Part shown: positions 548-63,546 of the stretch, piece by piece
How positions within the stretch are numbered: position 1 is the first letter of the stretch
Layout: each line of letters opens with the position of its first letter
Assembly: GCA_951406725.2 (NCBI GenBank)
Contig: OX597816.1
Span: forward strand, 18,662,001 to 18,726,000
From: Octopus vulgaris
Lineage: Eukaryota
Direction: 5' to 3'
Length of the DNA: 64,000 nt
Program-made: the position numbers and the translations under genes
Notes under the pieces: generated by a model
Seen by the model: only the letters and a program-made list of their open reading frames with translations
Databases searched by the model: none
Told to the model about the DNA's origin: nothing

Positions 548-1756
548 TCTTAGAATTTGATGAGATGAATACAAATAATTCTACGAACCCTGATTCTAAT
601 TCAAGGAAATTTAATAAAAAAGTTATAATATGGCTGAATATTCCTTTCAACTGTGCGATTCAATCGGATATACAGAGCAAATTCAAAGTAATTCTAGAAA
701 AAATTTCCCAATCTCTCATAGTTATCATAGAATTATTTCTAAGAAAACAGTTAGGATTTCTTATTCAACCCTCCCAAATATGTCCACTTTAATAGCTAAG
801 ATTAATAATAACAACATTAAACTAGCCAGGAAAGATGAAAATAAAAATAATAATACCAACATGAATACCAATAACAATTATAACAATACTACCAACAATA
901 AACGCAACAATAGTAACTATCAAAACATGGATGGAATCAGTAACCACAGAATGACTTATAATAATATTAACAGTAATAAGAGTAATAATAATATCGATAC
1001 TAATAGAAGTAATAATGTTAATAATAGAAGTAAGGCTAATAGAGAAAATACAGAGAATGAAAATATCAGTGATATCTATAGCAACAATATACAGTTTGAT
1101 AATAATACTAACAATAATAGTAACATTACCAATAATGTAAATAATCATGGTAGGACTTTAGACCTAAATGATGGAGCAAAAGGATCAATAAATAATAACA
1201 ATGCTTTAGATAGCAGCACCAACTATATAAATAATAATAATAATAAAGATAATTATACTCATGATAATCAAAATAACAGGAACATAAGACATCTACCCAT
1301 GAATAATCCAACTTCTGAAGTTGTTCCTCCTGCGTGTAAGTGTAGAATTAAGTCAAGATGCCCGGCACCTGGTCTATGCGGGGAAAATAACGTAATCTAT
1401 AAATGTACCATATCTACTGAGAATAACACATTTTTTTACATTGGTTGTACGATAAATTTTAATAAAAGAGTTAGAAATCACGTCTCATCTTTTAGTTACG
1501 TCATAAAGTCGGAACCACCATACTTTCAAGTAAGATCTGGGAACTCAAAAATAATAACAGGAATTATAACCTTAATTGGGAAATAGTTAGGAGAGCAATG
1601 CCGTATAAAAATAACAGGGTTGGTTGCCAACTCTGCTCCATGGAGACCTATGAAATTCTAAGGCATAGAAAAAATAGAGGCTTGTTAAATAACCATATTG
1701 AAGTAGGACAAGTTTGTGTCCACGCTAAATTGAAGACTCTAAAATATTTTAAATGA
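548..1756 (+). mobile_element. Penelope-like retroelement (PLE), 5'-truncated 3' part: post-RT linker plus C-terminal GIY-YIG endonuclease, two frameshifts
   Basis: Joining ORFs 565..792 and 630..1586 and a third frame ending at TGA 1754-1756 gives RKFNKKVIIWLNIPF..HRIISKKTVRISYSTLPNM..CKCRIKSRCPAPGLC..NVIYKC..FYIGCT..KRVRNHVSSF..IWELK..WEIV..PY..CQLC..E..LLN..CVH. This is the PLE linker/GIY-YIG layout. Frameshifts fall near 700 and 1497. The RT core is absent. Confidence 0.88.
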
Positions 1757-2522
1757 ATAACTGTATAGAATAATCGTAACAAGATAGATAGATAAATATA
1801 GCTGGGTTTTTACTAGTATATCATTACTTTTTAAGTAGATAACTGCGAGTTCTCACACTATAGTTATCTTTTTCTTTATAACTGCACATGATTTTGAGCA
1901 TTAGGAAATAAATAGTACTCGTACGTTGCTTAAATGAGGGTTTATTTAATTCTTAAATCTTAATTTTTAATTTTGAACTTAATCTAATTTAGGTAACACA
2001 ACTTTAATAAAATAAGTTACTAAAGCTTCACAATTCTATTACAAATTTAAATAAGTAAGGATACTCCCTTGAAAGTAGTATGAGAAATTTCAATATAATA
2101 GACAATTCCATCACACCTTGTTAACTAAATTCTAAGTTTTGACCGGTAGTCTGTCAATGTATAGATAGTAACGGCAACAATTTTAACACAGTAACAGGAA
2201 TAAATAAATAAATAAATTTAAATGACCTCTTGTTAAGGTTGCACTTAGATTTTTTCTCTTAATGTATTTCCTTTTGACGATAGCTTTTGACCCCTCTACC
2301 CCTGACCTTGTTATCTCTTTAGATTCTCTTTAGATTCATATCTGCTTTCATCTACGTCAGGTTGGTAGTAAATAGCTGTTTTACTGGTCAAAAATAATTT
2401 TCTCCTCATAGTTCCTGGATTCTTACAGATTCAAACTAACCAGGCCGTCTACAAATTCTTCTGTAGTTGGTCACCTTAGAACCCCCCTCCCTCTAAGTTG
2501 TCACAGAATACTCTATATAGGC

Positions 2523-2706: not shown

Positions 2707-2854
2707 GCTCCACAAAAAAATGCCGTCAGCTTTTAGAAGTCATAACATAGCAGTTTTGCGTGGAGAACAGTAATGTGGCAAATACCTTATCATATAGCAT
2801 GAAATGATTGTGGATTAACCATGGATAAATTCATCGTCTGTGAGTATGAAATTC

Positions 2855-3058
2855 CTTCTCATATCTCTGGAAATTTAAATCTACACTACGGATTAATTCA
2901 CCTTTTCTGTGAAGCTAATAAGCTTTTAAAAACCTGTGATAAGTCTGTGCATCATCCTCCTCATATCTCTGGAAATTTAAATCTACACTACAGATTAATT
3001 CACCTTCTTTGTGAAGCTAATAAGCTTTTAAGAACCTGTGATAAGACTGTGCATCATC
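2855..3058 (+). repeat. Tandem duplication, 102-bp period, 2 copies
   Basis: ctcatatctctggaaatttaaatctacactac...gtgcatcatc starts at 2858 and again at 2960. Confidence 0.92.
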
Positions 3059-3171: not shown

Positions 3172-3262
3172 TTTTAGCTGATGAGTACGGGACACTTTTA
3201 TCTGCTGCAATTTTTGCAACTTGTAATAAAGCCTGTCTTTGTATGAAACAATTGTACTAAAA
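3172..3262 (+). ncRNA. Type I hammerhead ribozyme, extended stem II, loop III AAUU
   Basis: Stem I UUUUAG/CUAAAA; CUGAUGA 3178-3184; stem II GUACGGGACA..UGUCUUUGUAU; GAAA 3245-3248; stem III AC-AAUU-GU; cleavage triplet GUA ending 3256. Confidence 0.82.
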
Positions 3263-3413: not shown

Positions 3414-3467
<54 letters not shown>

Positions 3468-3469
<2 letters not shown>

Positions 3470-3885
3470 CGCAGGAGTGTCTGTGTGGTAAGTAGCTTAC
3501 TAACCAGCCACATGGTTCTGGGTTCAGTGCCACTGCGTGGTATCTAGGGCAAATGTCTTCTGCTATAGCCCCGGGCCGACCAATGCCTTGTGAGTGGATT
3601 TGGTAGACGGAAACTGAAAGAAGCCTGTCGTATATATATATATATATATATATATGTGTTTGTGTGTATGTATATGTTTGTGTGTCTCTGTTTCTCCCTC
3701 TAGCATTGCTTGACAACCAATGCTAGTGTGTTTACGTCCCCGTCACTTAGCGGTTCGGCAAAAGAGACCGATAGCATAAGTACTGGGCTTACAAAGAATA
3801 AGTCCCGGGGTTGATTTGCTCGACTAAAGGCGGTGCTCCAGCATGGCCGCAGTTAAATGACTGAAACAAGTAAAACAGTAAAATA
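3468..3885 (+). mobile_element. tRNA-derived SINE family A (CORE-like central motif), full length
   Basis: Head ggcgcaggagtg..tggtaag..gggttcagt, central gggcaaatgtcttc, internal (TA)n/(TG)n, tail gactgaaacaagtaaaa. Many similar copies occur in the window. Confidence 0.9.
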
Positions 3886-4036
3886 GCATATATATTATGG
3901 AGATGTACTTGCATAGCAAGTGACCAGATCTGAGATCGTGTGCTGGAACGAAAACAATCGCAGCGTGGAAGGTGTTTATAAGCCATTTAAGAAACACACA
4001 AAAACTGTTAGATTCACTTCAAAATTTAAATTTAAC

Positions 4037-4328: not shown

Positions 4329-5300
4329 TGTATAATATGTATAATTGTTTGTGCATTTTTTTTTCTGTGTATGTGCCAGATATATCAACAACCATCATAA
4401 TTTGTAAGAGCTCTGTATGTGAACAGAATATACAGCCGCAACGATTATTGGTACGATGTCGTATTGTTAAGCACACGTCTTCCAGTTTCAATAGGAATTA
4501 AGAAGCACAGCATAAACCAGAGTTCGTAGGTCGTATCGTTTAACTCGTTAATCAAACTTCTCTGTCCATGGATGATTAGCTATTCAGAATTCATGTATAT
4601 TAAAGTGTTGCTTGTATTCTTTCATGGTATTTATCAGTTGAGGTAAATTTACCTAACCTTTCACTTACACACGATCTCATTAGTATATGTATCTGTTGTA
4701 ATTTTAATTATTTCTTTTATTGGTCACAGATTCCTGTGACGTTGAGGACAGTACATAAATGAAACACAAAGCCAAAATCAGAATAGGGAAATTACAGCGA
4801 TTAGAGTTTTCTCTTTAACAGTAACAATAAATTCATAGCAATAGGTAAGGAAACATTAATATCAAATACCATGTAAAATAGAATTAGAAGTAAAGCCTAC
4901 AAAATGGACTGAGTTGGTGCAATTCACTAAGACCATAAGTAGATCCATTTGGCAACAATTTCACCAACATCTTACGTTATATTTTCTAGAATGCAGAAAA
5001 CACCCGTCTGTGACATATCTACATGAAACCGTTTCACAATTTCTTTCTCCCTTGACACACATTATCATTGACCGAACTTTGTACTGTAAGGTTAATTCTG
5101 TGTATATAAAAAAAAATTATTAATTATTAATTTTCCCGTAGTTTTACTATTCAGGCACCACATAAATAGGATGCGAGTATATATATTTTCCTTTCAGACT
5201 ATTTTGTTTTCCTAATTAGAATTATTTAATGTGTGAGAGCGACTATGCTAGCAATGAGAAAAATCTTTCATGCCTGAGGGGTGAAGACGTAAAAAAAATT

Positions 5301-5708
5301 CGCAGGTATGTCTGTGTGGTAAGTATCTTGCTTACCAGCCACATGGTTCCGGGTTCATTCCCACTGTGTGGTATCTTGTCTTCTACTATAGACACGGACC
5401 GACCAATGCCTTGTGAGTGGATTTGATTGACGGAAATTGAAAGAAGTCGTCATATATATATGTATATATATGTACGTGTGTATGTGTTTCTGTGTCTGTG
5501 TTTATCCACACCAACATCGCTTGACAACCGATGCTGGTGTGTTTACGTCAACGGAACTTAGCAGTTCGGCAAAAGAGCCCGATAAAGTAAGTACTAGGCT
5601 TCTAAATAATAAGTCCTGGGGTCGATTTGCTCGTCTAAAGGTGGTGCTCCATTTTGGCTGCAGTGAAATGATTGAAATAAGTAAAAGAGCAAAAAAGAAT
5701 AAAAGATA
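5301..5708 (+). mobile_element. SINE family A
   Basis: Colinear with 3468-3885. Confidence 0.88.
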
Positions 5709-7034
5709 AAAAATGTGCAAAGCAGAATTTTGTCGACAATTTATAGATCTGTGGTCTAGTCTAGTAATGTTATTCCGAAGCATTATGCTTCATTATACCA
5801 CATATTTTATTAAGCGCATAGCGTGTTCTTTGAAGACCAGAAGAAAGTAGCAAAAATGGTTAAGTTTTAAATGAATAGATCTTACTAAGAGTCAAGAAAG
5901 TGGAGGCTACCACGTTCGATGCTTTATATTCAGAGACATTCATGTAGAGTTTCTTCTAAAATACATTCCCAATTTTGCTATATTGCAGAAATTATTTTGT
6001 TCTTGAAATTGATGCTGGAATTTAATCTTTATATTTCTGGCTATATACGTCTCATATGTTTTATTATTGCTAAATTAATTAGATCGAGCTAAAGCTCACA
6101 TTTTAATTAATTTTTTTAGTTGTATGTTTTCCGTTTATATTACCCTTAATATCTTGGGCTCATGTGGTCATTCCATGAAATGATTACTAATTATGGGTTT
6201 TAGAATTGTTGTGGATGTTGCAGTAGTAATCATTGCTGTTCTTGTCACTGTTACCACTACTGACGCAATGGATGGGCAGAATCTTTAGATCGTCAGAGAA
6301 AACTCTCTTCAGAATTTTTTCTGCTTCACACTCTAAGTTCTACTCTCGCTGACGTCAATGTTGTCTTCATTTCTCTCACTCAAAAGAATAATGGATCAGT
6401 CTAAGAACTCCATCTTTGGCATGAAGTTAATCCCACATATCTCCTCTAGGCAAAGTTTTTGTCCTTATATATTAATTGAGAGAAAATTGCATTATTTTTC
6501 TTCTTTGCCTTTCTGTTTACCGGGTGTTTATTCTTAATTTTCAAACAGTTTTCAACGTTATTTCTGAATAATGAAAAAAAGAATTTAAACAGTACTCATT
6601 CATTACTACATAATATCAGACTATCCCCGTATGAGACTATCGACTTCAAGTTTTATATGAAGCTAGTAAAATACAATTCTCCTTGTGTATTATTTCATTC
6701 AATTATCAATTGTTTGTTTATATAATGTTGATCATGAAAAAATGCTTTGTAAATAATTTGTTTACTGGACGTATTTTCTATTATTTCATAAGAGTCACAT
6801 AATGAACTTTACGGCGCTGAGTGCTTTGCAAATACAACGCAAATAATGAGGCTACCTAGATATTTCTGTAAGAAAAAGACAGGTAAATGACAGTAAGTGT
6901 TGATTAATTTATGGGTGACATTTGAAGGCATTCTTAATATGACAGCATCTCAGGAGAACAAATTCTACTTCAAGCTTTTACACATTTGTTCTCTTTAGGT
7001 GAGATCATATTATCAGATAAATTTTTCTAAGATT

Positions 7035-18923: not shown

Positions 18924-19008
18924 ATTTTCCTGAAGAGAAAGCTGCAAAATGGACTCTTATTCAATCGGAATTAGGGACTTTGCAGACTTCGAAACATATG
19001 TCGAAAAT
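18924..19008 (+). ncRNA. Type I hammerhead ribozyme, extended stem II, loop III AUAU, in a ~225-bp element (18836-19060) flanked by (TA)n on both sides
   Basis: Stem I AUUUUC/GAAAAU; CUGAAGA 18930-18936; stem II GAA..CUGCAAA..UUUGCAG..UUC; GAAA 18991-18994; AC-AUAU-GU; triplet GUC ending 19002. Confidence 0.86.
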
Positions 19009-22970: not shown

Positions 22971-24273
22971 TTACTAAAATATCTCTCTTATGGAAAGAAT
23001 TGTAAACGCACTATATATGTATTTGTGTGTGTATTTGCTGGCAGAGAGGTTGATAGATTGATAAAGAAGGAGAGAGAAATTTGTAAAAATAATTTTCATA
23101 TTAGAATAGAATATTAGGAACAATAGATATAAGCATGGAAAGATCTTACGATTTAATTAAAACACATTAAAATGTCGATAAATATAGAAATATAGACTTG
23201 TATCTGATTTTAGTATCTCAGAAATGACTTCGTATAGAGTGCTACTCTGCCCCTGTAATGTTAAAATGATTGATATTGAGTAGTAACCTAAATTACTATA
23301 AATAAAGCTTCATGTTAATGATTTAGGCAACATCTTTAAATGGCACGATATGTAGAGCATGAACAAGAATAAATCAAATAGAACAACGAACAGAGAGCCG
23401 CGATTTGACAGCTATACATGAAAGAACAATAAAAAAGAAATTCAAATGATGTGTTTATCTATTCAATGCATATGTTCTCTGCAACATCTGTAGAGACATT
23501 ATCTAGTGTTAAAATATCTATGAAGTTTCAATCGATGTCATGCTTCAAACAGGATATGACAAAGTAACAATATTACACACAGAAAACAGTAGGAGATTAG
23601 CTTTGAAATTCAATATGAAAAGGAAAATATACCAACATTTTATAGGTGTCCATTCATGCAAATATTTATCATTTCGCTTTGCAGTATAAACTATACAAAC
23701 GTTTCTCCGATAAATGATATAACTTATGCACACATAATCTAAATATCAATTTTATAAATTTGTGATTTTTTTCTCTATATAATTGATATTTAAATGACTA
23801 CTTGTTTATACAAAGAACACAAAGATATTTAGCTTAGGAATTCGCAGCCACTCTTCCACCTATAAAATATTCGGAGAGGTTATTCTAAGCAACATCATAT
23901 TATAAAAGTCTTAGTGTCCTCATAGAAAAACGCCCGTGAATGGGTTATATTTCGTTTGTGGGATAAATAACCCTAAAAATGTGTTGAATAATATTTATTT
24001 AGAAAATTACGTTGAAACGTTATATATGCAGTTTAAACAGGAAAAAAAAATTGAAAGGCAATTTTCATATTGTCGTGTATTTTGGCAAATAGGTTCGATT
24101 GGGCAATGCCGAGTAGAAGAACAGTTACATATAAATGCTCATTTCAGGCTTCCAACGTTAAATACAACATACACCATTGCACGCAAAGGATTACCCCAGG
24201 GCAATGGATGAGCTCCTGTGAGAAGCAAAAAAATTGTATATAAAAGCCCTAGACCGAGACAAGGATAATATTC

Positions 24274-24342
<69 letters not shown>

Positions 24343-24345
<3 letters not shown>

Positions 24346-25083
24346 ATTAATCAATATAGGGTGGCAAAAAAATTTTGTAGAATTTTCTGTCACCAGCGGC
24401 CTAGTGGGAAAAATTAAATAGTCATAGACCATTTATAAGTTCAACATCACAATCAAGGAACGGCCATAATAGGCCATTCACCCACTAGAAATAACAGCCA
24501 AAGCTTCAACCGCAAAATAACATTAATTCCGCAAACCAGGAGAAAATTAAAAAAACGTTTACCCTGTAATTTCTTATACGATGCACCGTTTCATCTACTG
24601 TTTAATGGTAAACTAACCTGATTAAATTAAATCAAGCCAATCTTCCATAGGCCCTTAGATTCGTCAGTAAGAAATAGCCAGATCGGAACAGATATTTTCA
24701 CGAGGCACATCTGTCCCTGCCTCGGCAATATCTGACCTAAAATTTTCAAATCATCGCACTCGCGCCAAATTTATCGGCAGCAAATAAATATAAGCCGCCG
24801 ATTCCATTACGGAATCAACCAGAAAATTCATAATTAATCAATATAGGGTGGCAAAAAAATTTTGTAGAATTTTTCTGTCACCAGCGGCCTAGTGGGAAAA
24901 AATTAAATAGTCATAGACCATTTATAAGTTCAACATCACAATCAAGGAACGGCCATAATAGGCCATTCACCCACTAGAAATAACAGCCTAAGCTTCAACC
25001 GCAAACGGTATACAGGGTGTGGTATATGTATTTTGCGGTTGAAGCTGTGTTATTTCTAGTACGGCCGTTCCTTGTTGTGATGT

Positions 25084-25086
<3 letters not shown>
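24343..25086 (-). mobile_element. Non-coding hammerhead-bearing element inside (TA)n: 487-bp period partial tandem (direct repeats 24343-24516 and 24830-25005) plus a short inverted fragment 25026-25086; retrozyme or PLE pseudo-LTR-like
   Basis: Near-identical ~175-bp direct repeats, a hammerhead between them, an inverted and internally deleted copy of the repeat end, and (TA)n on both flanks. Confidence 0.85.
24569..24675 (-). ncRNA. Type I hammerhead ribozyme with extended stem II
   Basis: Minus strand: AUUUCUUA CUGACGA AUCUA..(~58 nt)..UAGAU GAAA CG-GUGCAU-CG UA UAAGAAAU. Stem I is a perfect 8 bp; triplet GUA. Confidence 0.88.
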
Positions 25087-25148
<62 letters not shown>

Positions 25149-26829
25149 TATACGTGTGTATATGTATCTGTGTGTGTACGAGTGTGTGCATGTGTGTGTG
25201 TGTATGATTTGGAAACAATATATATTCATTTTTTTAGTAAATGAAATATCTACATAGTCAAAAGGTTTCGCTTATGCTAATCATGACAAATTAGTAGGTG
25301 ACAGGATTATTATTTCGTCCTATCATAATAAGTTTTCATTCCATGCTAGTAAGAGGAGCAAAATATCTGATAGAGGGGCGTAGGGAATAATTTGCTTTAA
25401 ATGGTTAAGGAAATAATATGGTAGAATATCAACCGCTGCAGATACTTTGCGATAAAATTATAAGCTATTTCCTTTTCTAAGCATACTGATAATGCTTATA
25501 ATTCTAAAATTGTACCCGTGTGGCATTCACTTAGTTGAATGCAGTTACTCTTTTATCTCGAACGCTTCAATGGATTATATCGATTCCTTTGAAGTGTATT
25601 TTATTCTATCAATTGTGTGGGTTTTATATCAAGTTTCACCTCGGTTAGACTGGGACCCAAACTCTAAAAAGCTGGAGCAATTTGTCCCCCAGGAATCAAA
25701 TATCTGTACGACGGTAGGCAATTATTTTGTCTCCAGTACTTTACCGATTCTTTCTGCTATTTAATATCGAAAGGAAGAGTATAGTTGACCTCGATAATAC
25801 TGGAAATCTTAAAATAACAAACGAAAAAATAGAAACGGAAAGAGAAAAAACACGGAGAAAAATCCATCAGGAGAATATTAATATGAAATATAATAATTAA
25901 TTGCTAATTTAATGCTCTATGATACGCTATTAGTTTTATTTCATAATAAATGAGAATCTCAAAATATGAAACACTTGTATCATTATAAGTAAACAAAGAT
26001 ACTTGCATATCATGTTTATATGCCCCGTATAAAGTAAACATAATATGACTACGTAAAACAACCAAAACAACATGAAATATGAAAACAACAAGAAAATAAG
26101 AAAATGTACAAATAAATATATGCATCGTTAGTAGGATTTAACATCAAACAGATTTCCTGAAATCGATATCTATAACTATAATCGTCTTTTGCATATACTT
26201 CGTATCAAATAACTTTTTATCAAATATATGAGTAATTTATTTGATCTTATAAAAATGCTAATTTGAATCTGATGGCCTTTCGTTATACGCTCTATGATAT
26301 AGTCGCAATGAAAACTAACGCATGCAAAGAAATCATGTGACCATAAGCATACGTATAGCAAGATGCACTTAACATACATACATGCATATATTCCGGTATT
26401 TTTTTCTTTCTATATTTATATATTTAACTGTATTTATATACAGATCAATATATGTTTATGTAAACATCTGTTTTTCATATATAATGTACATAAACCTTCA
26501 TTTTAGACACATTTAATGCAGATACAAACATGAGAATCACATACATGTCAGATTCGAAATTAATATATTATGGTGTATAATTATTACAGGGACATGGATA
26601 TTACACACACATATATACACATACATACACACGTCTGTGAAACTATATATATATATATACATAAATATACGTATATATAGGCATATATATATATATAACT
26701 ATACATATGTATATATATATATATATATATATTCACACATGTTTATGCTTATGTATTTCCCTAGGTATATATCTATATCTACATCCTATTTATGTTTCCT
26801 TTCTTGATTCTCCCTCTCCTCCTCTCTCT

Positions 26830-27045
<216 letters not shown>

Positions 27046-28049
27046 TGACACACACATTAGCAATACAATCAATTTTTAATTTTTCCTTCTTTAGAAGTGT
27101 CAGGCAGAAATTTGTGGTTGCGTTATGGGTTGGAAATCAATGCGTATAATCATATGAAATCGTTTTCAGTGATACATAGTGCCATTTATTCGCTCATATT
27201 ACGATACATTTTCTACACACACACACACACACCTAAATATACGCACACCTAAACATACGCACACGCACACACTCACAGAGTCGCATACACAATGACATAT
27301 GCGTTTAATTTAGCCTGCATAAAACAGCGATAGTTTCCAAATGAAATACATACAGGGAAAATATTTTATGTGTTGCTCAACCCGGCATTCAGCGCAGCTT
27401 AATAAACTTCTAATTTTTCACTACTACCGTCTTTCACTGGAACCTTTTGCACAATGTTTCCTATTGACAACAATAAATCACCGCATTAAACGTTCCGTAT
27501 TGGTTTAGCATTTTCTTATAGAGGACAAATTTCATATCGAACCAAACACGAGTGTTGTCCTGGTTTCAGGAGAGATTCTCCTCTGGCATTACTGCAAACG
27601 ATTATCGCTTTCGTTTCATATGAGTATAGAGAACTCACCTTTATTCATTTGAGATGATTCTAGTCGGGAAAGTTACGTTAGGAAGTTAATAATGAAATTG
27701 CGAACAGAGAGCCGCCATTTGCTTCAGCTGAAAAGTAATCAGATGAAGAATATTTATACATTTTCCTTGTTCATAAAGATGATTTGTGACCGAAGTATTT
27801 TTGGAAGGAAGTGCTTTTCTAATTTTCATAGTTTCTTTGAATTTGCGTCTCGGTTTTCAGATTCTCAATATTGACAAAAGATGGAAGGCGAGATCGAGCG
27901 GGGAATCTGTGAGCGAAATGCTTCCCGTGTGAAACAGGCCAAACTATCTTTGCCAGGTCTCGGGATTTAAAACCTCTTTTCCTTTGGCAGAAGGAATATT
28001 CTGAAGAGCATTTTTTGAGTTCAAACAACACACAGTTTTTGATATGAGT

Positions 28050-28514
28050 AAGGCGGCGAGCTAGCAGAAACATTAGTACGCCGAGCGAAGTGCTTATCGG
28101 TATTTCGTCTGTCTAAGGCGGCGAACTGGCAGAAATGTTAGCACGTCGGGCGAAATGCTTATCGGTATTTCGTCTGTCTTTACATTCTGGGTTCAAATTC
28201 CACCGAGGTCGACTTTGCCTTTCACCCTTTCGGGGTCGATAAATTAAGGACCAGTTACGCACTGGGGTCGATATAATCGACTTAATCCCTTTGTCTGTCC
28301 TCGTTTGTCCCCTCTATGTTTAACCCCTTCTGGGCAATAAAGAAATATGTATTTTGTCTGTCTTTACGTTCTGGTTTCAAATTCCACGGAGGTCGACTTT
28401 GCATTTCATCCTCTCAGGCTCGATAAATTAAGTACCATTTGCGTCCTGGGGTAGATTTAATCAATTGGATCCCTTTCAAAAAAATTCAGGCCTTGTAACT
28501 AGAGTAGAAAAGAA
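28050..28514 (+). mobile_element. SINE family B, composite (duplicated head, partly repeated body), with TSD
   Basis: aaggcggcgagctagcagaaac head twice, gcctttcaccctttcggggtcgataaattaag..ccag core twice; TSD-like tttgatatgagt on both sides. Confidence 0.88.
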
Positions 28515-29289
28515 TGTTTGATATGAGTCAGATATAAACTCATTTTAAATAGGTATAATCATTATAAATTTAATCACCATTTCATGAAGTAGTCTGTAAA
28601 TAGAAAAAAATTAGAATGTGAAATTTAATGCTTTTTTCGTTTTATTATTGAAAACGTTTCATCGACACTTTCATGTGAAAAATGAAACGGGGTTTCCTTT
28701 CCAATCAAGTGCGCCTATTTTCTAAAAGACATACATATGTATGAAATTTCACAATTGCGTTACTAGAGGACCTACCATAATGTCTGTCACTTTACACTTT
28801 ATGTACACTTCATGAATATTGTTCCCACGTCAGACTACCCCAAATCGTGAAACTGCATGTGATAATATGAAAACAGTTATGAAAACTTATAAAATATTAA
28901 GTGGAAGTTAAACTTACATGGAATACTGAACTTAACTATTTGCCCGACATTTTGTACTGATATACATATAACTACAAACATCCATACGTTGTGATACGTA
29001 TTGTATGTACTGATACATATTTCAGAGTGAATATCCCCACAGTTGAATCAGCTTCTTATGAATACTGACATATGCCATTGTACGACTTATATCAACGATG
29101 TTTAGAAACTGTCAAATAACCAAATAGCTGAAATATTTACCCTGTAAACGATTTCAGGTTTTATATATTTTTAAATCCCAGCCATTCGTATAATGCCTTC
29201 AAATTTTAGCACTTGTCAAGAAATTATAAAAGAGTAGATATGTCATCTACATCGACACTAGGTCCCCCAGCCCAAAAAAAAAACCATGA

Positions 29290-32529: not shown

Positions 32530-33125
32530 TAGTGGCATATCTTCAACTATCTTAAATCTCCAAAAATCGTTTCAAATTTGGAAACAAATATTTTATCTTC
32601 AGCCTGTAGTCAATCACGGGCAAGAATTCTGGACATAAATACAGCAGCATTTCATATCCTCGCCTGAAGGTTATTAACGATGTAACAGTGAAATTGTTGC
32701 TATACGGTTACTAAACGATATACACACAAATCTGATATTTTGATACCTAAATTTCAAAAGTAATTTGTATGATAAATAGTCTATATCCAATGCGTAGGAG
32801 TATATCTATTATGTAGTGGGATATCTATTATGTAGTGGCATATTATATAGTGGCATATATTCAACGAATTTACATCTCCAAATACTGTATCAAAATTGGA
32901 AAAAAATATTGTATCTTCAGCCTGTAGTCAGTCACGGGCAAGAATTCTGGACGTAAATACAGCAGTATTTCATCCCCGACTGAAGTTTATTAACGGCGTA
33001 ATAGTGAAATTGTTGCTATACGGTTACTGAACGATATACACAGATATCTGATAATTTGGTACCTAAATTTCAAAAGTAATTTGTATTATAAACAGTCTAT
33101 GTCTAATGCGTAGGAGTATATCTAT
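32530..33125 (+). repeat. Tandem duplication, ~318-bp period, 2 copies
   Basis: tagtggcatat..tatcttcagcctgtagtca..cacgggcaagaattctggac..aatgcgtaggagtatatctat at 32530 and 32848; short junction repeats atatctattatgtagtgg. Confidence 0.92.
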
Positions 33126-37000: not shown

Positions 37001-37397
37001 ATTTTCTTTACTACCCACAAGGGGCTAAACACAGAGAAGACAAACTGGGACAGACAGACCGATTAAATAAGAAACTGGTACTTATTTAATCGACCCCGAA
37101 AGGATGAAAGGCAAATTCGACCTCGGCGGAATTTGAACTCAGAACGTAGCGGCAGACGAAATACCTATTTCTTTATTACCCACAAGGGGCTAAACATAGA
37201 GGGGACAAACATGGGCAGACATAGGTATTAAGTCGATTACATCGACTCCAGTGCGTAACTGGTACTTAATTTATCCACTTCGAAAGGATGAACGGCAAAG
37301 TCGATCTCGGCGGAATTTGAACTCAGTACGTAACGGCAGGCGAAATACGCTTAGCATTTCGCCCGGCGTGCTAATGTTTCTGCCGGCTCGCCGCCTT
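37001..37397 (-). mobile_element. SINE family B, partial tandem
   Basis: Two body/tail units; TSD-like tcaatgc(g/c)aaaat on both flanks. Confidence 0.88.
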
Positions 37398-38589
37398 CAT
37401 GTCAATGCCAAAATGATTACATTTTATAAGATTTGGGGATTATTTATCTCAAACAAACTTCTTTTCACTCAATGTATTTCATCATTATGTAACAAATAAC
37501 GGACTATAGTTACAAAAACAATCTAGTTTTTGTCATTCAAATTTCCTCACGTATATGAGCTGCAGTCACTATTCTAATATTAGACTGATTTTATCAACTA
37601 TACAAAAACGTGAATAATCTAATTTTCTATCGGACTAGACATTGGATGCTATTTCTACAAATAATGTTCAAAATTGTTGTTTTATTTGGGGTAGGATTAC
37701 ATCATTATACATTGTTGGACGAATAAGTGGGTATTTATAATGCCCATATTTTTATCAAGAGTATCAGATACAGACGATAAATAGCTTGGAATAGTAATTG
37801 AAACATGTACTTATAGCAATGAGCCATTACTTCCCGTTCTACAGTGTAAGCTAGTTATGTAAAATTATATTAATAGACTCGTGATGTTATGCTGAACAAA
37901 ATATCTATTTACAATTTCTTATATTTTTGTCGTCCATCTAATGATAATATTCCTGTTTATGGTTATCAATAATAAACTCTCTACAATCAATGTTTGTTTT
38001 GTAAATCAGGGATATTTTCAGTGGTGAGTTTTAAAGTGACGTCGGCGTTACTGAGAAGGAAACAAACAATGACTACATGGTACAAGAAGAGGGGCGTGAA
38101 GTCTGGGCACAGTAATGGACATTTTTTGATCCCACTATATACGTACATGCATACACACATATGCTCTCTCTCTCACACACACACAGCAACGAACAGGCAC
38201 TTATACATATACTAAAGTATATTGTGCGTAGGTATATGTATATACATATATATACATACAAAAGACAGCCAGTCAGCCACTGTTGAAACAATCCTGTCAC
38301 AACCTGGGACCTTGAAGATTGCTTTAATGCAAGAAAGTATACTAGTCCCTTAACATTTAATATTTGATATTCAATATTTCATCTATTCAATAAGACAATC
38401 AATACTTCATTTCATTTTACTCTCTATATATTATTTATACTATATATTCTATATTCTACATTAATATTATAAAGAATATAAATAAAACATAAAAACAAAG
38501 AAATTTGGAATTTTTAAAAATAATATATATATACATATATGTATGTGTGCGGGTATATATTATATGCATTTTTTTTTACTTATTCTATC

Positions 38590-38892
38590 TGTTTCTTTTC
38601 GCCGAACCGCTAAGTTACGAGGACGTAAACACATTCATCGGTTGTCAAGCGATGTTGGGGAGGACAAACACAGACACAAACATGTACACACACATACGTA
38701 TATATATATATATATATATATACATGTTTATGGCGGGCTTCTTCCAGTTTCCGTCTACCAAATCCACTCACAAGGCTTTGATCGGCCCGATGTTATAGTA
38801 GAAGATACTTGCCGAAGGTGCCACGCTGTAGGACTCAACCCAGAACCGTGAGGTTGGTAAGTAAGTTACTTACCACACAGCCACTCCTGCGC
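38590..38892 (-). mobile_element. SINE family A
   Basis: Reverse complement of the family A head and body. Confidence 0.85.
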
Positions 38893-40265
38893 ATGTGTAT
38901 AATACATGTATACACGCGCACGTAAACACATACCTACAACACAGACAGATGCACGCACACACACACAGACACCCGCAGATATGCACCAAGATAGCTACTG
39001 AGTTATCTGGATTGAAATTTAATCACAATATAATGGAAAATACATTGATAACATGTCTCTATACAACATTGTAAATATACTTCTTATTGAATGCGAGGGT
39101 TGTATGTAGGATGTAGTTAGATACTACTTTCTAGTAGTTTGCTCTCTCTCCTTCGCTTATGCTCTCCAGCACGATAACCGATTGTGTCAATAAATAGGAG
39201 CATTGACCTGAGAGACTGAAACCGAATGTTCTATTCACATTCACTGACTGCACGAGGAATACGAGAGTATAAAATTAAACACTGCATTATTACAAGTTGC
39301 TTCTCTTTAATTATGTACACTATATGGTCCCCAATGAATAAAACATGTTCTCTTTCTTGGTTCAGTATCCTAATTCGACTCTATGATTCCATTAACCTTT
39401 AGCTCACAAGCCTTCGGCATAATTTCAATAGCGTTAGTTCAACCTAAATGACCTTATATTATTTACTCATTAAACTACGTGAACTGCACTTAATAAATAT
39501 TTCATAATACTTTATCGTTTCACCAGAATTAAGCTAATAAACAGAATGAAGCCAATAAATGCAGTTCAAGTACTTACACATGCGGGATGAACATTTTGCT
39601 CTCCCTCAGAAGATAACGCATTCATTTCATGTATTTTGTTTCAAGATTACATTTTATATCGGTGCGTTTGTGTGTTGGTTGAGAAGTTCAGAAACTGGAA
39701 GTGATGCATTATGTTTGTTAACTAAAGTTATTTCTTTAGCTTGAGACTTTGGGATTACTATATAAGTGGATCTTTCTGGCAATGGATGTTTATATCAGGG
39801 AGATAACCATTCACTAACGAGGCGTAACTAGATTAGAAATTACAACTTAAAATTCAGGAACAAAAGGATGAAGATTCAGAGCAATTTTATCTGCCAGAAC
39901 GTTCTTACAATAGTTGTTATCAGTCGCATATAAGTGAACTTCATTCTTTTCAAAATTCATCCGTATGTATCTCATTAATTAGATACATTACAGAGAGAGA
40001 GACTTCATTAAGATTAGAGATAAAATGAATGGCAATCCGAGGGAAATTCATGAAATGTATTTTTTCTGCATCATAAAACGTTGGTAATTTAGCATTCGAG
40101 AGAAGGAGGGTATGTTGCTGGTGTTTACGAGCAGAGTAATAGCCGTTTTCAAGGGAATTCTGTCTCTATGAAAATGTTTAAAAGTAGCTAACTCTTTTGA
40201 AATAAGGTGAAATGATATTGCGTTTATGTGTTTTCATTATATTGTTCCAGGAAGAATATAATATA

Positions 40266-43770: not shown

Positions 43771-43807
43771 AAAAGACCTCACTGATACAATCTTATATTT
43801 TAATTTT

Positions 43808-44175
43808 TTCTTTTATTGGTTTCAGTCATTTGACGGCTGCCATACTGGAGCACTGCCTTTAGCCGAACAAATCGAACCCAAGACTTATTCTTTGTAAGCC
43901 TAGTACTTATTCCATCGGTCTCTAATGCCGAACCGCTAGGTTACGGGGACGTCATGCGATGGTGGAGGGGTGGAGGGCAAACACCGACACCTACCTACAC
44001 ACACGCACGCACATATATTTATGACGGGCTTCTTTCAGTTTCCATCTACCAAATCCACTCACAAGACTTTAGTCGGCCCGAAGCTAAAGAAGACGACACT
44101 TGTACAAGATGCCATGCAGTGGGATTGAAGCCGCAACCAAATGGTTGGTAAGAAGACTACACAGCCATTCCTGCT
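43808..44175 (-). mobile_element. SINE family A
   Basis: Reverse complement of family A. Confidence 0.82.
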
Positions 44176-44703
44176 CTGTGTATTGAAATTACTCTGTAAA
44201 CAAGACAATTGAATCGTTAACCGACGGTATTTTTCCATGCCAAATATTCAAATAAACGACTCGTTGAAAATCGGTGTTACGTTTCAAGAATCTTCGTCTT
44301 TTTTTATAAATACGCAAACCACTTCATATTTAGACGGCCTTTTTCTCTGTAAACACAGGTGTGCTAAAAACTATACACGTATACGCATACATCTACAAAC
44401 TCAGACTATCATAAAAACACACAGATTCTATCCATATACACACATTAAACACAAGGATATATTCACTCATTTCCATACGCACATTTATCTATGTATGTAT
44501 GTATGTATCAATCTATCTATCTATATATCTATCTATCTTTCTGCCTGTCTCTCTCTGTCTATCTGTCTGACTGTCTGTGTATCTCTACACTATATAATAT
44601 ATACATACAAGTTATCTCTCTTTCACACTCTCTGTATATTCTTATATATATATTTGTATATATATATATATGTGTATATATACGTATGTGTATACATGTA
44701 TGA

Positions 44704-44927: not shown

Positions 44928-46507
44928 GTATTTGTGCGTGTGTGAGTGTACGTGTGTGTGTGTGTGTGCATGTATATGTGCATGTGTGTATCAGCATATC
45001 TGTGTATATGCACATTTTTGAGATGCATCGATAAAAAGATTTATTTTGCAACGCCTCACATAACGATACTTTGTTCCAATATTCTCCCATCAAGCCAGTT
45101 CAAGCGTAAACCACTTAAGGACCTTTTAAGAAACATGAAAGATTTTAACAGACAGGCAACTTGCCAGTGACTAAAAGCACTTGGCTTCGAATACGATCTC
45201 AATGAGAGATATCTCTATTTTAAGTTCTTAAGTATATGCAATTTCCTCATACGGAATTCTTTCGTCAATTATATTGAACAATATTTTGCAATTTGTACTG
45301 CCCAGCATTAAAAGTGAATGCGATATAAAATTAAAAAATAAAATAAGCAAACGCAACGAAAATTCAAGAATGAACAATGAAATAAAGGGGCATATTTGTT
45401 TTCATCGTCTATCAGCCGATCGTTCAATTATGATGAGTGATTTCGACGTGTCCTATTATGTCAATATTACTTTTGAATCGCAATTTATTACCTTTTCAGT
45501 TATTTAAAAACTTGTTGATATATTTATAAGTGAGTATAAGTGTGTGTATGAATGTGCGTAATTGAGCGTGTGTGTGTGTGTGTGTTTCACTTTCAAAACC
45601 TTGATAAGTTATAAGACAGCAAACGCCTAAGTCACGCATTTCAATCAAAATACGTGCAAATTGATGTTGAAGTGTATTAAATAAATTCTCTTTAAAACTA
45701 ATTACAGTAGTATCTAAACACATAGGGATTCCCTCTAAATCTTAAAAATATAATCAAGCTAAATTCTAATATTTTTACTATGCGGTAAGCAAAATATGTT
45801 CAAGTAACCCTTTACAAGTTTATTATTATTTACTTACATAAATATGTAAGAGTAATAAAGTAAGGGTAGAATGAGAAAAAACCTACTTATTAAATCACAT
45901 TAACTCTCGTATTGTACACAAATGCCTTATTCATATAGATTATTCCATGCAGTATTATTTTAGCATTTGCTGAGTAATATATCTTCTAAGTTTCGCACAA
46001 TTATATTTAAGTAAGAGTAAATGCAACGCAAGATATAAAAATATATGTCTTGAACAAGAAGAAATGGAGATAAATGTTCATGGCTTAGAATTCATTCCTA
46101 AGAACGTGTGAAGATATTAGAAGGCTCCAGGTGTGAATGCGGATAAAGACTTGCTTAAGCGTCAACTAACACTATCATGAAGTTATTTCAACTCACTTCT
46201 TATTCCGTGCTATTAAAATATCTTGGAGAAAGAAACTTTACGTAATGTTCCATGTGATTCAACTATAATGGTTATAAAAGGTTAGTACTTTACAGAGAGA
46301 TCAAGAAACACGTAACATGTCCATATACGATTTTGTATGACCCCACAGCAAGGACAAGGATCGACAAATCTCACAGTTATAATTCCTTTGGATACTAAAC
46401 TAAACCATGCACCATATTCGATAAGGTCATTGTCGTCGTCGTCGTCGTCATCACCATCAAAATCATCATCATCATCAACAACACTACCATCACTACAATA
46501 TACTCTC

Positions 46508-46924
46508 CTATTTCTTTACTACCCGCAAGGGGCTAAACACAGTGATGACATACAAGGAGAGACAAACGGATTATGTCGATTATATCGACCCCAGTGTGTA
46601 ACTGGTACTTATTTCATCGACCGCGAAAGGATGAAGGGCAAAGTTCACCTCAGCGGAATTTGAACTCAGAACGTAGCGGAAGATAAATACCTATTTCTTT
46701 ACTACCCACAAGGGGCTAAACACAGAGGGAACAAACAAGGACAGGCAAATGGATTAAGTCGATTATATCGACCCCAGTGCGCAACTGGTACTTATTTAAT
46801 CGACCCCGAAAGGATGAAAGGCAAAGTCGACCTCGGCAAAATTTGAACCCAGAACGTAGCGGCAGACGAAATACGGCTAAGTATTTCGCCCGGAGTGCTA
46901 ACGTTTCTGCCAGCTCGCCGCCTT
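46508..46924 (-). mobile_element. SINE family B, partial tandem, 17-bp TSD
   Basis: ~183-bp body/tail unit twice; TSD tacaatat(a/t)ctctccta at 46494-46510 and 46924-46940. Confidence 0.92.
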
Positions 46925-47436
46925 ACAATATTCTCTCCTACTACATTGTGTTATAGTGTCAATATTACCATGATCTGTCGGCTTTACGTGCGTGATTCTT
47001 GTATTTAGCACAGTATCAACACAACTAACACTATAATTGTTATTCCACTGATAATAACAGCCGATCGGCTATTTGTCTGTTACTAATGTAATGCATGCTG
47101 TTCAACTCTATTAAATCTTACTTTGATGAACAGACTTCACCCACGTCCGTCAAAATTTATCGTGACTTACTACTGAGACACCAAGCTATATTGATTTCAA
47201 ACAGTGATATTTTTTGTTCAACTGATCAACAATTCAAAATCAATAATAACGACGGGAACCCCATCAACAGATATTTATCATTTACACTACAGTTCTCTGA
47301 AAATGACGTTGAAGAATTTCACTTTATTTCTCAAATGCGCTGATGCTCAAAAATAATACATAGCATTACTACTTCATATATATTTTAATTTCGCTAGCAA
47401 TCACTTAATACGTGTAATTCTATTCATGACTAATTC

Positions 47437-47785
47437 TTATTTCTTTATTGCCCACAAGGGGCAAAGGAGGACAGACAACGGAATTAAGTCGATTATATCG
47501 ACCCCAGTGCGCAACTGGTACTTAATTTATCGACCCCGAAAGGGTGAAAGGCAAAGTCGACCTCGGCGGAATTTGAACTGAGAACGTAACGGCAGTTGAA
47601 ATACCTATTTCTTTACTACCCACAAGGGGCTAAACACAGAGAGGAAAAACAGCGACAGACAGCGGGATTAAGTCGATTATATCGACCCCAGTGCGTAACT
47701 GGTACTTATTTAATCGACCCCAAAAGGATGACATAGCAAAGTCGACCTCGGCGGAATTTGAACTCAGAACGTAGCGGCAGTCGAA
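47437..47785 (-). mobile_element. SINE family B, headless tandem of two body units
   Basis: tatttcttta..cccacaagggg..atcgaccccagtgcg..aagtcgacctcggcggaatttgaact occurs twice. Confidence 0.88.
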
Positions 47786-47849
47786 AATCAGGATTGATCG
47801 CATTGACGTGCCTTATCCTCAAACGATGCTTGCTCCGTTGTTGATGCTG

Positions 47850-48405: not shown

Positions 48406-48776
48406 CGTCTTTATCATTGCTGTCGTTACTGCTCGGAGCTGCTCTGCGGCTCTGCTTGTTGCTGCTGGTGTGTTAGTAATGTCAGATTGTTGTTTGATTA
48501 GGAAAAATTCTAAAGCTTCGAACGCAATTACTGCGAGTAATTCTTTCAGCTGTGTGGTTCTTATCCTTCTCAGTTCAAACCTTACCTCATTCAACATGGC
48601 GTAGATTTAATAAAATGGTATTCAGCTTATTACTATCGATTTAAATCATTAAATATTTTCAAGTATACATTGCTCGTCTTTTCTCTAAAGGACATACCTT
48701 CAATGTTAGTGACTTGGCAGCGTGGTTATAGAGTCGGAGAAAGTGTAGATTGGGATATTTTATGCGTACATTTATA

Positions 48777-49196
48777 TACTCTTTTACTCTTTTTAATTCT
48801 TACAGTCTTTTGAATGTGGCCATACTGGAGCACCGCTTTTAGTCGTGCAAATCGACCTCAGGACTTATTCTTCGGAGGCCGAGTACTTATTCTATCGGTC
48901 TCTCTTGTCGAGCCGCTAGATACGGGGACGTAAACACACCAGAATCGGTTGTCAAGCGATGTTGGGGGACAAACACAGACACGCAAACAAAATACACACA
49001 TATACACACACACACATATATATACATATATACGACAGGCTTCTTTCGGTTTCTGTCGACGAAATTCACTCACAAGTGTTTGGTTGGCCTGAGGCTATAG
49101 TAGAAGACACTTGCCCAAGGTTCCACGCTGTGGGACCGAACCCGGAACCATGTGGTTGGTAAGCAAGTTACTTACCACACATCAACTCCTACGCCT
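48777..49196 (-). mobile_element. SINE family A
   Basis: Full-length reverse-complement copy. Confidence 0.88.
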
Positions 49197-49606
49197 ATAT
49201 ATATCCTTGACTTTAAATCAAGCTAAGGTCGAATTTGACGTTCATCAATGCGGCGTTAATAACACGATGTATCAGTCAATTACAGGAATCAATATTATCG
49301 ATTACTTCCTCGTCACTAAGAAAACTTGCCCTATGAATCTGGCAGTATCATTAGCAAATCAGTCAAAATTGCTTAGTGGCATATTTTCCGGCTTCTTACG
49401 TTGTATTGTCAGTTCCCGCCCAGATTAGTTTTGCCATATATCCTATCTGGGATTGGTAAATTAAATTATTAATCAAGTACTAGTGTCGATGGTAGAAACT
49501 TGTTGCTTCCTGTAAGAATGAATGATGTTGGGCAAAAATCGGAGAGAATTTTCTTTATCGGAACATTTTCAACATTGTTTGGTGAGAGCAAGGGTGAAGC
49601 CATTAT

Positions 49607-49667
<61 letters not shown>

Positions 49668-49999
49668 GTACATATACATATGCATATATACATATATGTG
49701 TATGTAAATATATATTTACATATATGCATATACGTATATATATATATATAAGTGTGTGTGAATGTAGTGCGTGTGTCTGTCTGTATTTATATGTGTATAA
49801 ATATTTTTTTCTATTTTTAAAGGCTAAACAAGGCAAATTATAAGAAATAATACAAGTCCTTAGTTTGCAGGAAATATTATAAGAAATGATAAGGAAATAA
49901 TCCACGTATTTTAGTCCTTATAATTGTATTGTGTTTGCTACAAAGAAAGTATAACCAGATAATGCTTCATGCGAACTCTTCTGCTCTTATATATATATA

Positions 50000-50216
50000 A
50001 AGGCGGCGAGCTGGCAGAAACGTTAGCACGCCGGGCGAAATGCGTGGCCGTATTTCGTCTGCCGCTACGTTCTGAGTTCAAATTCCGCCGAGGTCGACTT
50101 TGCTTTTCATCCTTTCTGGGTCGATTAATTAAGTAGCAGTTGCGCACTGGGGTCGATGTAATCGACTTAATCCCTTGTTTGTCCTCTCTGTGTTTAGCCT
50201 GTTGTGGGTGGTAAAG

Positions 50217-50220
<4 letters not shown>
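50000..50220 (+). mobile_element. SINE family B, single unit, in (TA)n
   Basis: aggcggcgagctggcagaaacgttagcacgccgggcg..gtttagcctgttgtgggtggtaaagaaat. Confidence 0.9.
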
Positions 50221-50256
<36 letters not shown>

Positions 50257-56088: not shown

Positions 56089-56172
56089 CCACATATTTGT
56101 CTATATATCTACCTTCTCTATAATGTTGCCACATCTTTGTCTATATATCTACCTTCTCTATAATGTTGCCAC
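56089..56172 (+). repeat. 40-bp tandem duplication
   Basis: ccacat(a/c)tttgtctatatatctaccttctctataatgttg repeated twice. Confidence 0.93.
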
Positions 56173-56208: not shown

Positions 56209-56303
56209 GTAATTGGCTGATGAGTACTCAGCATTTTAAAACTGTTGTAATACTTACAACATTTAATAAAATGATGTAGTACGAAACGATCGTACTAAAT
56301 TAC
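56209..56303 (+). ncRNA. Type I hammerhead ribozyme, extended stem II, loop III GAUC
   Basis: Stem I GUAAUUGG/CUAAAUUAC (one bulge); CUGAUGA 56217-56223; stem II GUACU..CAUUUUA..UGUUGUAA-UAC-UUACAACA..UAAAAUG..AGUAC; GAAA 56283-56286; AC-GAUC-GU; triplet GUA ending 56294. Downstream sequence is homologous to that of the 3172 hammerhead. Confidence 0.87.
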
Positions 56304-61582: not shown

Positions 61583-62644
61583 TACACAGAAAAAAACAAT
61601 GAGAGAAACAAGGAGAGAAAACAATGCATGAAGAAGCTAACGATCTATCAGATAGATAGATAGAAAGATATTCAACGTTGCCTACGTAATATGAAATACA
61701 CATTTACATAAACACATATATAATGTATACATACATAGAAGCACATAAATATATTTATACATATACATATATACAGAACCATATATGTGCACATGTACAT
61801 ATTCATGTAAGACGGCTTCTTTAAAAGTGAGTTTCTGAACCACTTTCAGTTAAAAGGTAGTTTTTATTGTTTTTCTTTTTTGTAAGATTATACCCACTTA
61901 ACCAATCATAAATCATTCAATGTTATTCTTTTAGTTACAAAGATTTGGAACACCTTGTAATACGCAACGACGTGTCATTCAGAATGGATTTGAAGAACTG
62001 CTTTTCAATAACGTAGCATTTTTACCTTAATGAACAAGGTGATATTGAGAGGAACACTGTCAATACAAATACCAACCAAGCCAAGACTTTTGTGTCATGT
62101 AACACGATCTAAATTGTTTTTGCTTTCGTATGTTCTTTGCGTTTAAATAAAGACTTCGCCTGCAGTTATGACAAAGCAAATTAAATTCTTATTTTTGGCA
62201 ATATGAAATATTTAACTACTGCGGCTAAGCTCATCCAAACTAAAACCTCTTTTTCATTTATGTAACCGGAATGTTTATTTGCCTGAAAGTCATGTCTCTC
62301 CTGAAATACTAGACGGTATTTTGCAGACATTACCTACTGCCCAAAACCTACCTTGGAGACGAAGAAAAAAAGTAAACGAAGCTATATCACTGTGATTGCG
62401 ATCCCTAACTCTCACACAAGTGTTATATTCAACTAACGAAGGATATTCATCCCACTGGTTCAAGTAAGTGGTATACACAGCTTAAAAATATTTTAAACTC
62501 ATATTTTGAAGATGAATTTCACAGAAGTTACATTATTTACATTTGTCCTCATCTTGTTTGTTGTTAACACAACGTTTCGGCTGATAAACCCTACAGACAC
62601 CTTGAGGTGTCTTGGGGAGATTAACTACTACGCTATGTGCCCCC

Positions 62645-62839: not shown

Positions 62840-62909
62840 TGATGATGATGATGATAATAACATCGAAAAGTACCTTAGGAATGAGAACTCAGATTCGAAA
62901 TTTCCCCAA

Positions 62910-62955
62910 GACACCTGATGAAGGCTGGAGGGTATATCAGCCGAAACGTTGTGTT
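62910..62955 (+). ncRNA. Minimal type I hammerhead (PLE type)
   Basis: GACAC CUGAUGA A GGCUG-gaggguauau-CAGCC GAAAC GUU GUGUU; stem III reduced to the palindrome AACGUU. Confidence 0.8.
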
Positions 62956-63546
62956 AACAATAAACACAATGAGGACAATTATCCGTCGAATGTAAATAAT
63001 GTAAATAATATACATAATTCCTCATGTCTTAAATATAGAACCGTACGAATTTCACAGGTAGTTCAAATTATCATTAAATAATTAAAAGATATTTTAAAGT
63101 AATAAATGGATCACCCTCTTTCATGTTAAGCATTAATATTGATATCTCTGATGAATGCATAAATACATATGAGTTTTAATACATGCTTGTGAATGGCTAC
63201 TGTAAACCTGAAAAAGCAAATGTAAATGTCTAGAATGCACGAAGTAATAACATTACAAATGTTACTCTGGAGGAGAGAGAAATTAGCACAAAAATCAATC
63301 CGTATTGTAGAATAGAACAAATATCATCAACAGGTGTAATATCATTCCAAAGTAATCCAGTTTCACCACACTTTAAAATTTACACAAATACACAGCGATG
63401 CTGTGGTCCTGATACTGAAGAGGTGAGCGATCACTTGAGAGACTCCGACTGAAAACTACTAAACTGTTTCAATAGCCACAGTGAAGTAAATGTTTCTTTG
63501 TAAATGAAAGCGTATGTATAGATAAACGTTAAACAAAACATTTGTA

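Follow-up and report, generated by a model that had tools for sequence, protein, structure and literature searches.

How does a small non-coding unit with a ribozyme motif come to lie, in little more than one copy and with an inverted fragment of itself at its side, between two (TA)n tracts? The locus at 24343-25086 raises this question within the window, by which we mean the whole 64-kb stretch of DNA that was analysed. We consider it likely that the locus is a copy of a non-autonomous, very high-copy element of the non-LTR retrozyme type, which was moved in trans by the reverse transcriptase (RT)-endonuclease of a Penelope-like element (PLE).

Anatomy of the insertion

The main body of the insertion (24343-25005) is 663 nt long and corresponds to 1.36 units of 487 nt. 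Its excess over one unit forms a direct repeat, copy 1 at 24339-24516 and copy 2 at 24826-25005 (both on the plus strand), which is 97.8% identical over 180 alignment columns with 2 gaps (E 1.5e-83); the repeat starts lie 487 apart, and the offset becomes 489 after two 1-nt insertions. The near-identical repeats 487 bp apart that an earlier note on this DNA had described are therefore real. One full non-coding unit, delimited by the repeat period, occupies 24343-24829 with its RNA sense on the minus strand and has a GC content of 37%. Copy 1 can be viewed as the pseudo-LTR-like overlap of a partial tandem, and copy 2, the extra 0.36 unit, would be the 5'-truncated end of the main cDNA, with the RNA 3' end of the insert presumably at about 24343. 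When the unit is doubled, the longest stop-free frame is 47 aa in the sense and 60 aa in the antisense direction, in agreement with the earlier statement that no meaningful ORF is present, and the repeats are separated by 309 nt without an ORF, where an autonomous PLE would have an RT and GIY-YIG ORF. Judged by its sequence, as a small non-coding unit with this GC content and no LTR-type ORF, the element has the features of a non-LTR retrozyme. Folded as a circle, the unit reaches -141.1 kcal/mol (z -4.2 relative to 60 dinucleotide shuffles). Self-comparison of the window revealed no second copy of the unit in its 64 kb.

The (TA)n reported earlier on both sides was recovered by TRF as a period-2 repeat of 35 copies at 24276-24345 and a repeat of 30 copies at 25086-25145, which gives a left tract at 24276-24342 and a right tract at 25087-25145; a target-site duplication is unreadable inside (TA)n. 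The left tract would be the target at which the main cDNA was primed, and the right tract would be the priming site of a second cDNA. This second cDNA would be represented by the inverted piece at 25003-25086 (plus strand), which copies the unit from 24591 to 24441; exact blocks of 8-18 nt and a global alignment show that at least 5 internal deletions have compressed about 151 nt to 84. The inverted piece shares a 3-nt AAA overlap with the main body at 25003 and passes over the hammerhead cleavage region, where it can be parsed ambiguously, as a 14-nt plus a 1-nt deletion or as a 7-nt plus an 8-nt deletion. An inverted and deleted copy of the repeat end had been claimed from 25026 onwards; its existence is upheld, but the alignment places its start at 25003, so that it crosses the ribozyme. 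The arrangement of main body and inverted piece means that both RNA 3' ends point outwards, each meeting (TA)n.

A partial tandem with an adjacent inverted 5'-truncated copy, set in a microsatellite (TA)n target, is the anatomy of a PLE-type insertion. Published PLE insertions show such partial tandems, frequently next to an inverted and 5'-truncated copy, and a preference for (TA)n is on record for Hydra and Naiad elements (PMC8557442); furthermore, the PLE protein of the anole cleaves and extends both target strands and has two internal RNA start sites downstream of the hammerhead (PMC11167929). The repeat, the inverted piece, the (TA)n flanks and the family of related contigs all support the central proposal of the earlier note, a non-coding, hammerhead-bearing head-to-tail unit inserted in the PLE manner.

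The hammerhead motif and its variants

Between the repeats, on the minus strand at 24675-24569, both a base-pair listing and a descriptor scan identify a type I hammerhead motif. It is composed of stem I with 8/8 Watson-Crick pairs, CUGACGA, stem II with 5/5 pairs, GAAA, stem III with 4 pairs and a 4-nt loop, and GUA; all 17 listed pairs are Watson-Crick or G-U, and the core with three helices, of which helix I is open, places the motif in type I. This is the intact hammerhead with a perfect 8-bp stem I that had been noticed from the letters. Cleavage is predicted after GUA, between 24577 and 24576. The locus contains exactly one hammerhead and the duplicated part contains none; because the direct repeat does not include the motif, the locus alone cannot excise a monomer. 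The descriptor scan of the window returned 1 match at thresholds of 8/5/4 and 3 matches at 4/5/4, and the same descriptor returned a mean of 0.0 matches on 100 order-2 Markov sequences of 64 kb, with thresholds that were picked after the hammerhead match had been seen.

CUGANGA and GAAA are separated by a spacer of 68 nt, unlike in the short-armed textbook hammerhead. This extended stem II domain (24593-24660, minus strand) is predicted to fold as a 5-bp base with a long imperfect hairpin, and by itself it reaches -22.4 kcal/mol (z -4.69), a value that 0 of 200 shuffles equalled. At gathering level, Rfam gave 0 matches in the window, and its 31 matches up to E 10 on 24200-25200, all below gathering scores, include no hammerhead; the length of the stem II domain is probably the reason for this miss. 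Stem III and loop 3 together form a 12-nt palindrome (24578-24589, minus strand) with a calculated energy of -17.5 kcal/mol as a self-duplex versus -0.2 kcal/mol as a monomer hairpin, and the modelled energies suggest that it is suited to a double-hammerhead fold. Such a marginal stem III that is strong as a self-duplex has been described for hammerheads acting as dimers (PMC4209133). In the window copy, the active fold is calculated to be 2.1 kcal/mol less stable than an inactive one in which the core is sequestered. The local fold of the minus strand also contains a stem between 24526-24517 and 24450-24441 (z -1.93), at whose two arms the inverted piece starts and the main body ends; this predicted stem may be due to chance, and the whole-circle fold pairs the region differently.

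Variation within the family was followed in 40 of 98 variant rows, 12 of which fall at 11 positions inside the hammerhead. None of these 40 of the 98 touches an invariant core base, for which the chance expectation, that 11 variable positions avoid 11 invariant core positions, is 0.28, and the free core position 7 (24663) varies strongly, with two common variants. Variants at 24668 and 24596 lead to G-U wobbles, and those at 24597 and 24656, which are stem II partners, would together turn A-U into G-C, the two changes being unphased. The pair 10.1-11.1 is A-U, and a U-to-C variant at 24593 would break it unless 24660 also changes; this partner change is absent among the same 40 of 98 rows. In the palindrome, 24583 and 24584 change together at equal or near-equal depth in 4/4 runs, such that the loop stays palindromic, and this double change may be one inherited event. 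Variation that is wobble-compatible or possibly compensatory is suggestive of a maintained fold, rather than proof of one.

The window contains several further repeats. A second family of type I hammerheads with a long stem II is represented at 3172-3262 and 56213-56298 (both plus strand), with 46- and 49-nt loops and a palindromic stem III; the two elements are 68.6% alike over 271 nt, have (TA)n ends about 140-170 nt downstream, and each carry a short tandem duplication upstream of the hammerhead (102 nt at 2853-3058 and 40 nt at 56089-56172). Local alignment of the 487-nt unit with these two elements yielded scores of 33 and 31 versus shuffle means of 31-32, so no similarity between the two families is apparent. 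A weak hammerhead-like match at 18924-19008 (plus strand) has a 3-bp stem II and is probably due to chance. An inverted pair at 62528-62622 and 62899-63004 (79%) surrounds an (AAT)n tract, and its second member shows a short-armed hammerhead core by eye that is absent from the list of the descriptor scan. At 32530-33125, a 316-nt unit is present in 1.9 tandem copies that are 88% alike, with no hammerhead match in the descriptor scan. A dispersed repeat of ~430 nt, usually beside microsatellites, occurs at 3448-3895, 5298-5712, 38577-38912, 43790-44183, 48770-49204, 63541-63962 and other places, and a second dispersed family occurs at 28048-28519, 37003-37402, 46507-46925, 47432-47786 and 49987-50230; both families presumably resemble octopus SINEs, and such SINE-like repeats together with the load of microsatellites suggest that the host is probably an octopus.

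The family in public sequencing runs

Part of the stretch is contained in 20 of 24 listed public runs, which represent 9 studies and 4 organism codes and none of which is recorded as RNA. Contigs of four runs were placed on the unit at 82% likeness; two of these runs (X1 and X2) are of DNA type, the other two (X14 and X15) are guessed to be RNA and may be DNA, and all are represented by contigs only. The family comprises 5152 contigs in X1, 16448 in X2, 124 in X14 and 190 in X15, and those of X1 and X2 match at 82-100% likeness, which provides the many copies that characterise non-LTR retrozymes. The share of contigs that continue into unlike sequence is 0 in X1, X2 and X15 and 0.04 in X14. 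When both copies of the repeat are mapped to a single unit, the depths of ten bins differ 3- to 5-fold, and the ratio of the first to the last 100 nt is 1.08-1.53 in the four runs. Single units with a fixed end and 5' truncation should fade steeply toward the junction, and the family depth does not; because depth is fairly even round the unit, there is neither a steep truncation gradient nor a collapse at the head-to-tail junction.

Even coverage of the unit and the near absence of unlike run-on argue that the locus is neither a local duplication nor the visible end of a coding element. A one-off duplication with a chance hammerhead-like motif would agree with the single copy in the window and with the Rfam result, but 100 simulated windows contained 0 comparable motifs, and the family has thousands of contigs, among them contigs unlike the window copy that reach across the junction; we regard this explanation as extremely improbable. 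If the locus were instead the terminal region of a coding PLE, 5'-truncated autonomous copies would mimic a small unit, which is plausible insofar as strong 5' truncation is usual in PLE insertions and their terminal repeats contain hammerheads (PMC8557442, PMC4209133). Moreover, 197 further loose ends could hide rare ORF-linked copies, in addition to a contig of X14 that exits the unit at 24629 with 255 unlike letters. Against this stand the ORF-free 309 nt between the repeats and an unlike run-on share of 0 to 0.04, and we consider a coding terminus very unlikely. These were the two alternatives that the earlier note had set against its own reading, and the thousands of contigs with their run-on shares make both look unlikely. 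The X14 contig, seen among the loose ends listed, leaves the unit inside the stem II domain and represents either a truncation junction or a related element.

Among the contig pieces listed, 2 of 32 cross the head-to-tail junction, by 14 and 23 letters, the longer being record 16 of X14 (24754-24848); within these 32 (there are 22054 others), none reaches 31 letters into each side of it or spans the whole unit. A variant at 24816 that is absent from the window copy lies 30-37 letters from contig ends in 4/4 runs, so other copies also reach across the junction. Multimers of the unit are thereby indicated, and the 487-nt unit probably forms a head-to-tail family of very high copy number. Past 25017, only X2 covers the inverted piece, at a depth of 39-135 versus ~3 million for the unit; if the inverted piece is one locus, the unit:locus ratio would be 2 to 8 x 10^4, to be read as an order of magnitude because summed depth is not copy number. 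Several joints of low depth listed for X2 either leave out part of the unit or return to an earlier point in it; copies with deletions therefore occur beyond the window locus as well. At the cleavage site, 3 of the 16 pieces listed for X14 and X15 bridge by at least 31 letters, which fits uncut RNA, religated RNA and DNA alike. One contig of X14 has a loose end in which (TA)n joins the unit near 24438-24445, and 13 contigs of X2 show such a join less clearly, with an agreement of 0.74 and a median of 12 letters; these ends match the place where the inverted piece meets (TA)n (24441) and hint at a second preferred start site near 24441.

The even depth round the unit would also be expected of arrays, and a satellite-like tandem repeat could have arisen from a PLE terminal repeat and spread at the DNA level, by unequal crossing over, extrachromosomal circles or templated repair, leaving the locus as a DNA-templated orphan and the inverted piece as a repair patch. 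Local amplification by unequal crossover after deposition of a PLE terminus has been proposed (bioRxiv 10.64898/2026.07.22.740005), and the many short microhomology-type deletions in 25003-25086 could reflect polymerase theta-type repair. However, both ends of the insertion meet (TA)n with the RNA 3' ends outward, which is the PLE pattern, the second hammerhead family likewise has both of its elements in the window terminating at (TA)n, and the unit is strongly structured as RNA, as its circle fold indicates. We consider the spread of a satellite improbable and prefer the insertion of a retrozyme-type element by a PLE.

Template, helper and relation to known systems

For the retrozyme-type element that we favour, the following route can be proposed. 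Head-to-tail copies would be transcribed on the minus strand, and hammerheads, probably as dimers via the palindromic stem III, would cleave the multimeric transcript to monomers of 487 nt, which may then be circularised by a host ligase. Both strands of a (TA)n tract would be nicked by a PLE protein; one nick would prime a cDNA at unit position ~24343 that runs 1.36 units through the hammerhead site, and the other would prime at ~24441 a short, slippage-ridden cDNA that extends to ~24591. The two cDNAs, from opposite (TA)n strands, would then be joined head to head through AAA, a structure that we take to resemble the twin priming of L1.

Because the main cDNA crossed the hammerhead site and continued past its own start, we infer that the template was a head-to-tail RNA. 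The earlier note had proposed copying of a 487-nt circle more than once round; the head-to-tail template holds, but the circle does not follow from it, since a linear multimer gives the same 1.36-copy product. In our judgement the chances that the template was a circle are about even. Nor should start points be expected to be circularly permuted, because the one PLE tested in vitro began reverse transcription at fixed internal sites (PMC11167929). With the same element and helper, read-through of a tandem array could have given a linear transcript that stayed uncut and served the PLE as template, the hammerhead being weak or acting at another step, and we give this alternative a substantial chance that falls somewhat short of one in two. 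In its favour, hammerhead mutants inserted normally in vitro, with unprocessed RNA as the dominant substrate, and none of the reads ended at the cleavage site (PMC11167929); likewise, 8 of 9 Xenopus retrozyme dimers failed to cleave in vitro (bioRxiv 10.64898/2026.07.22.740005), the even depth round the unit implies multimers as templates, and the inactive fold is slightly favoured in the window copy. On the other hand, the hammerhead core is intact, the stem III palindrome has been kept through a double change, and retrozymes of coral, mussel and axolotl accumulate as circles (PMC7229834).

The likeliest helper of the proposed insertion is a (TA)n-targeting clade such as Hydra. Although (TA)n makes up only 3.1% of the window, each of its three long-armed hammerhead elements terminates there. 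The window also contains a PLE remnant at 618-1760 (plus strand), a broken endonuclease region in which a CxCX5C motif of the Hydra type is accompanied by a match to GIY-YIG (E 5.5e-4) that falls below the cut-off of Pfam. A descriptor scan downstream of this remnant found no hammerhead, and local alignment of the unit with 1590-2520 on both strands scored 34 and 30 versus shuffle means of 32; a few short words near 2340-2470 that look shared by eye were set aside, as the alignment is at shuffle level. The remnant, with 1-1174, overlaps an inverted duplication of 1174 nt (90.6%), so that the window contains another inverted structure of PLE type. Six motifs of the unit gave 0 matches in the available Naiad, Chlamys and Hydra consensus supplement of PMC8557442, in which line breaks or divergence could hide some, and comparison by eye with the octopus Naiad ends given there showed no sequence likeness.

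More speculatively, the insertion might be an in vivo record of how the enzyme of a Hydra-type PLE, acting in trans, primed from both strands at two internal sites that it prefers on a circular RNA, and the element an unrecognised long-arm retrozyme from a hidden wider group to which the second family, with its two copies in the window, would also belong; we hold this full reading only tentatively and think it more doubtful than probable. If it is true, the circular-template model of PLE transposition becomes directly testable on thousands of natural insertions, and the unit would be among the most abundant repeats of the genome, perhaps with tens of thousands of units, missed by Rfam and by short-spacer descriptors.

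In the open-access literature we found no report of a cephalopod retrozyme, and the accessible text of the metazoan retrozyme paper (PMC7229834) mentions neither octopus nor cephalopods; repeat catalogues may nevertheless list the family already, as an unnamed repeat or under Penelope. A 15-letter motif of the element occurs at 119 loci in metagenomes, for which blastn of the element against all 119 gave one 19-nt match, attributed to chance. A longer motif had 0 matches in viral contigs and 1 in a bacterial genome, which is confined to the 24 letters searched, has no 5' core half in the preceding 150 nt and was likewise set aside as chance.

In plant LTR retrozymes, a type III hammerhead lies in each LTR, whereas the type I motif here lies between the repeats and not in them. 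The insertion resembles that of Poseidon PAc of Anolis carolinensis (Frangieh et al. 2024) in its AT-rich target, in the cleavage and extension of both strands, and in two internal start sites downstream of the hammerhead, but the start sites of PAc are one 30-40 bp tail apart, versus about 98 nt between the ends here, and PAc is coding, with hammerhead cleavage dispensable in vitro (PMC11167929). The Hydra and Naiad PLEs (Craig et al. 2021), both clades with octopus members, share with our locus the (TA)n target, the partial tandem and the adjacent inverted 5'-truncated copy, and Hydra hammerheads share the palindromic stem III; the unit differs from these elements in having no ORF and in its 68-nt spacer, and the Hydra-1_Obim hammerhead has a short loop 2 (PMC8557442). 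Long second arms are also known from PLE hammerheads, namely 9 bp with a 34-nt loop in a spike-moss element and core halves 35-50 nt apart in eight Naiads (PMC8557442).

The closest counterparts are the metazoan non-LTR retrozymes of Cervera and de la Pena (2020), for which PLEs were proposed as helper (PMC7229834). Like these, the element has a non-coding head-to-tail unit, a type I hammerhead, a GC content under 50%, a high copy number and a strongly self-paired predicted circle; its unit of 487 nt compares with about 170-400 nt in invertebrate retrozymes, its stem II domain of 68 nt contrasts with their short helix, and the window locus has one hammerhead only (PMC7229834). Li, Clavereau and Pollet (2026) proposed the same relation, with non-LTR retrozymes as non-autonomous PLE derivatives, and the unit falls within their range of 51-972 bp, in which monomer derivatives of multimers are common (bioRxiv 10.64898/2026.07.22.740005). 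By the rule of that preprint, two consecutive complete hammerheads, the window locus is not an active retrozyme; pLTR homology is given there for 24 of 57 Xenopus families, whereas no homologous autonomous PLE was found among the sequences compared here, and its sample as described consists of 31 vertebrates, 3 insects and 1 anthozoan, with no mollusc (bioRxiv 10.64898/2026.07.22.740005). More-than-unit copying of a circle was proposed in 2014 (PMC4209133), and the view of animal retrozymes as non-autonomous PLE derivatives was put forward in 2020 (PMC7229834) and argued in 2026 (bioRxiv 10.64898/2026.07.22.740005). The element thus belongs to a kind known from many animals, and its PLE link is in print; what is new here is a large, young family in a lineage outside the surveys found, with a hammerhead shape missed by standard searches, such that ribozymes may be undercounted in genomes of this sort, and with a compact insertion whose two ends both appear to have been primed from a single (TA)n tract. 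Given the genome, the family offers a test of whether the template that PLE enzymes copy is a circle or an uncut multimer.
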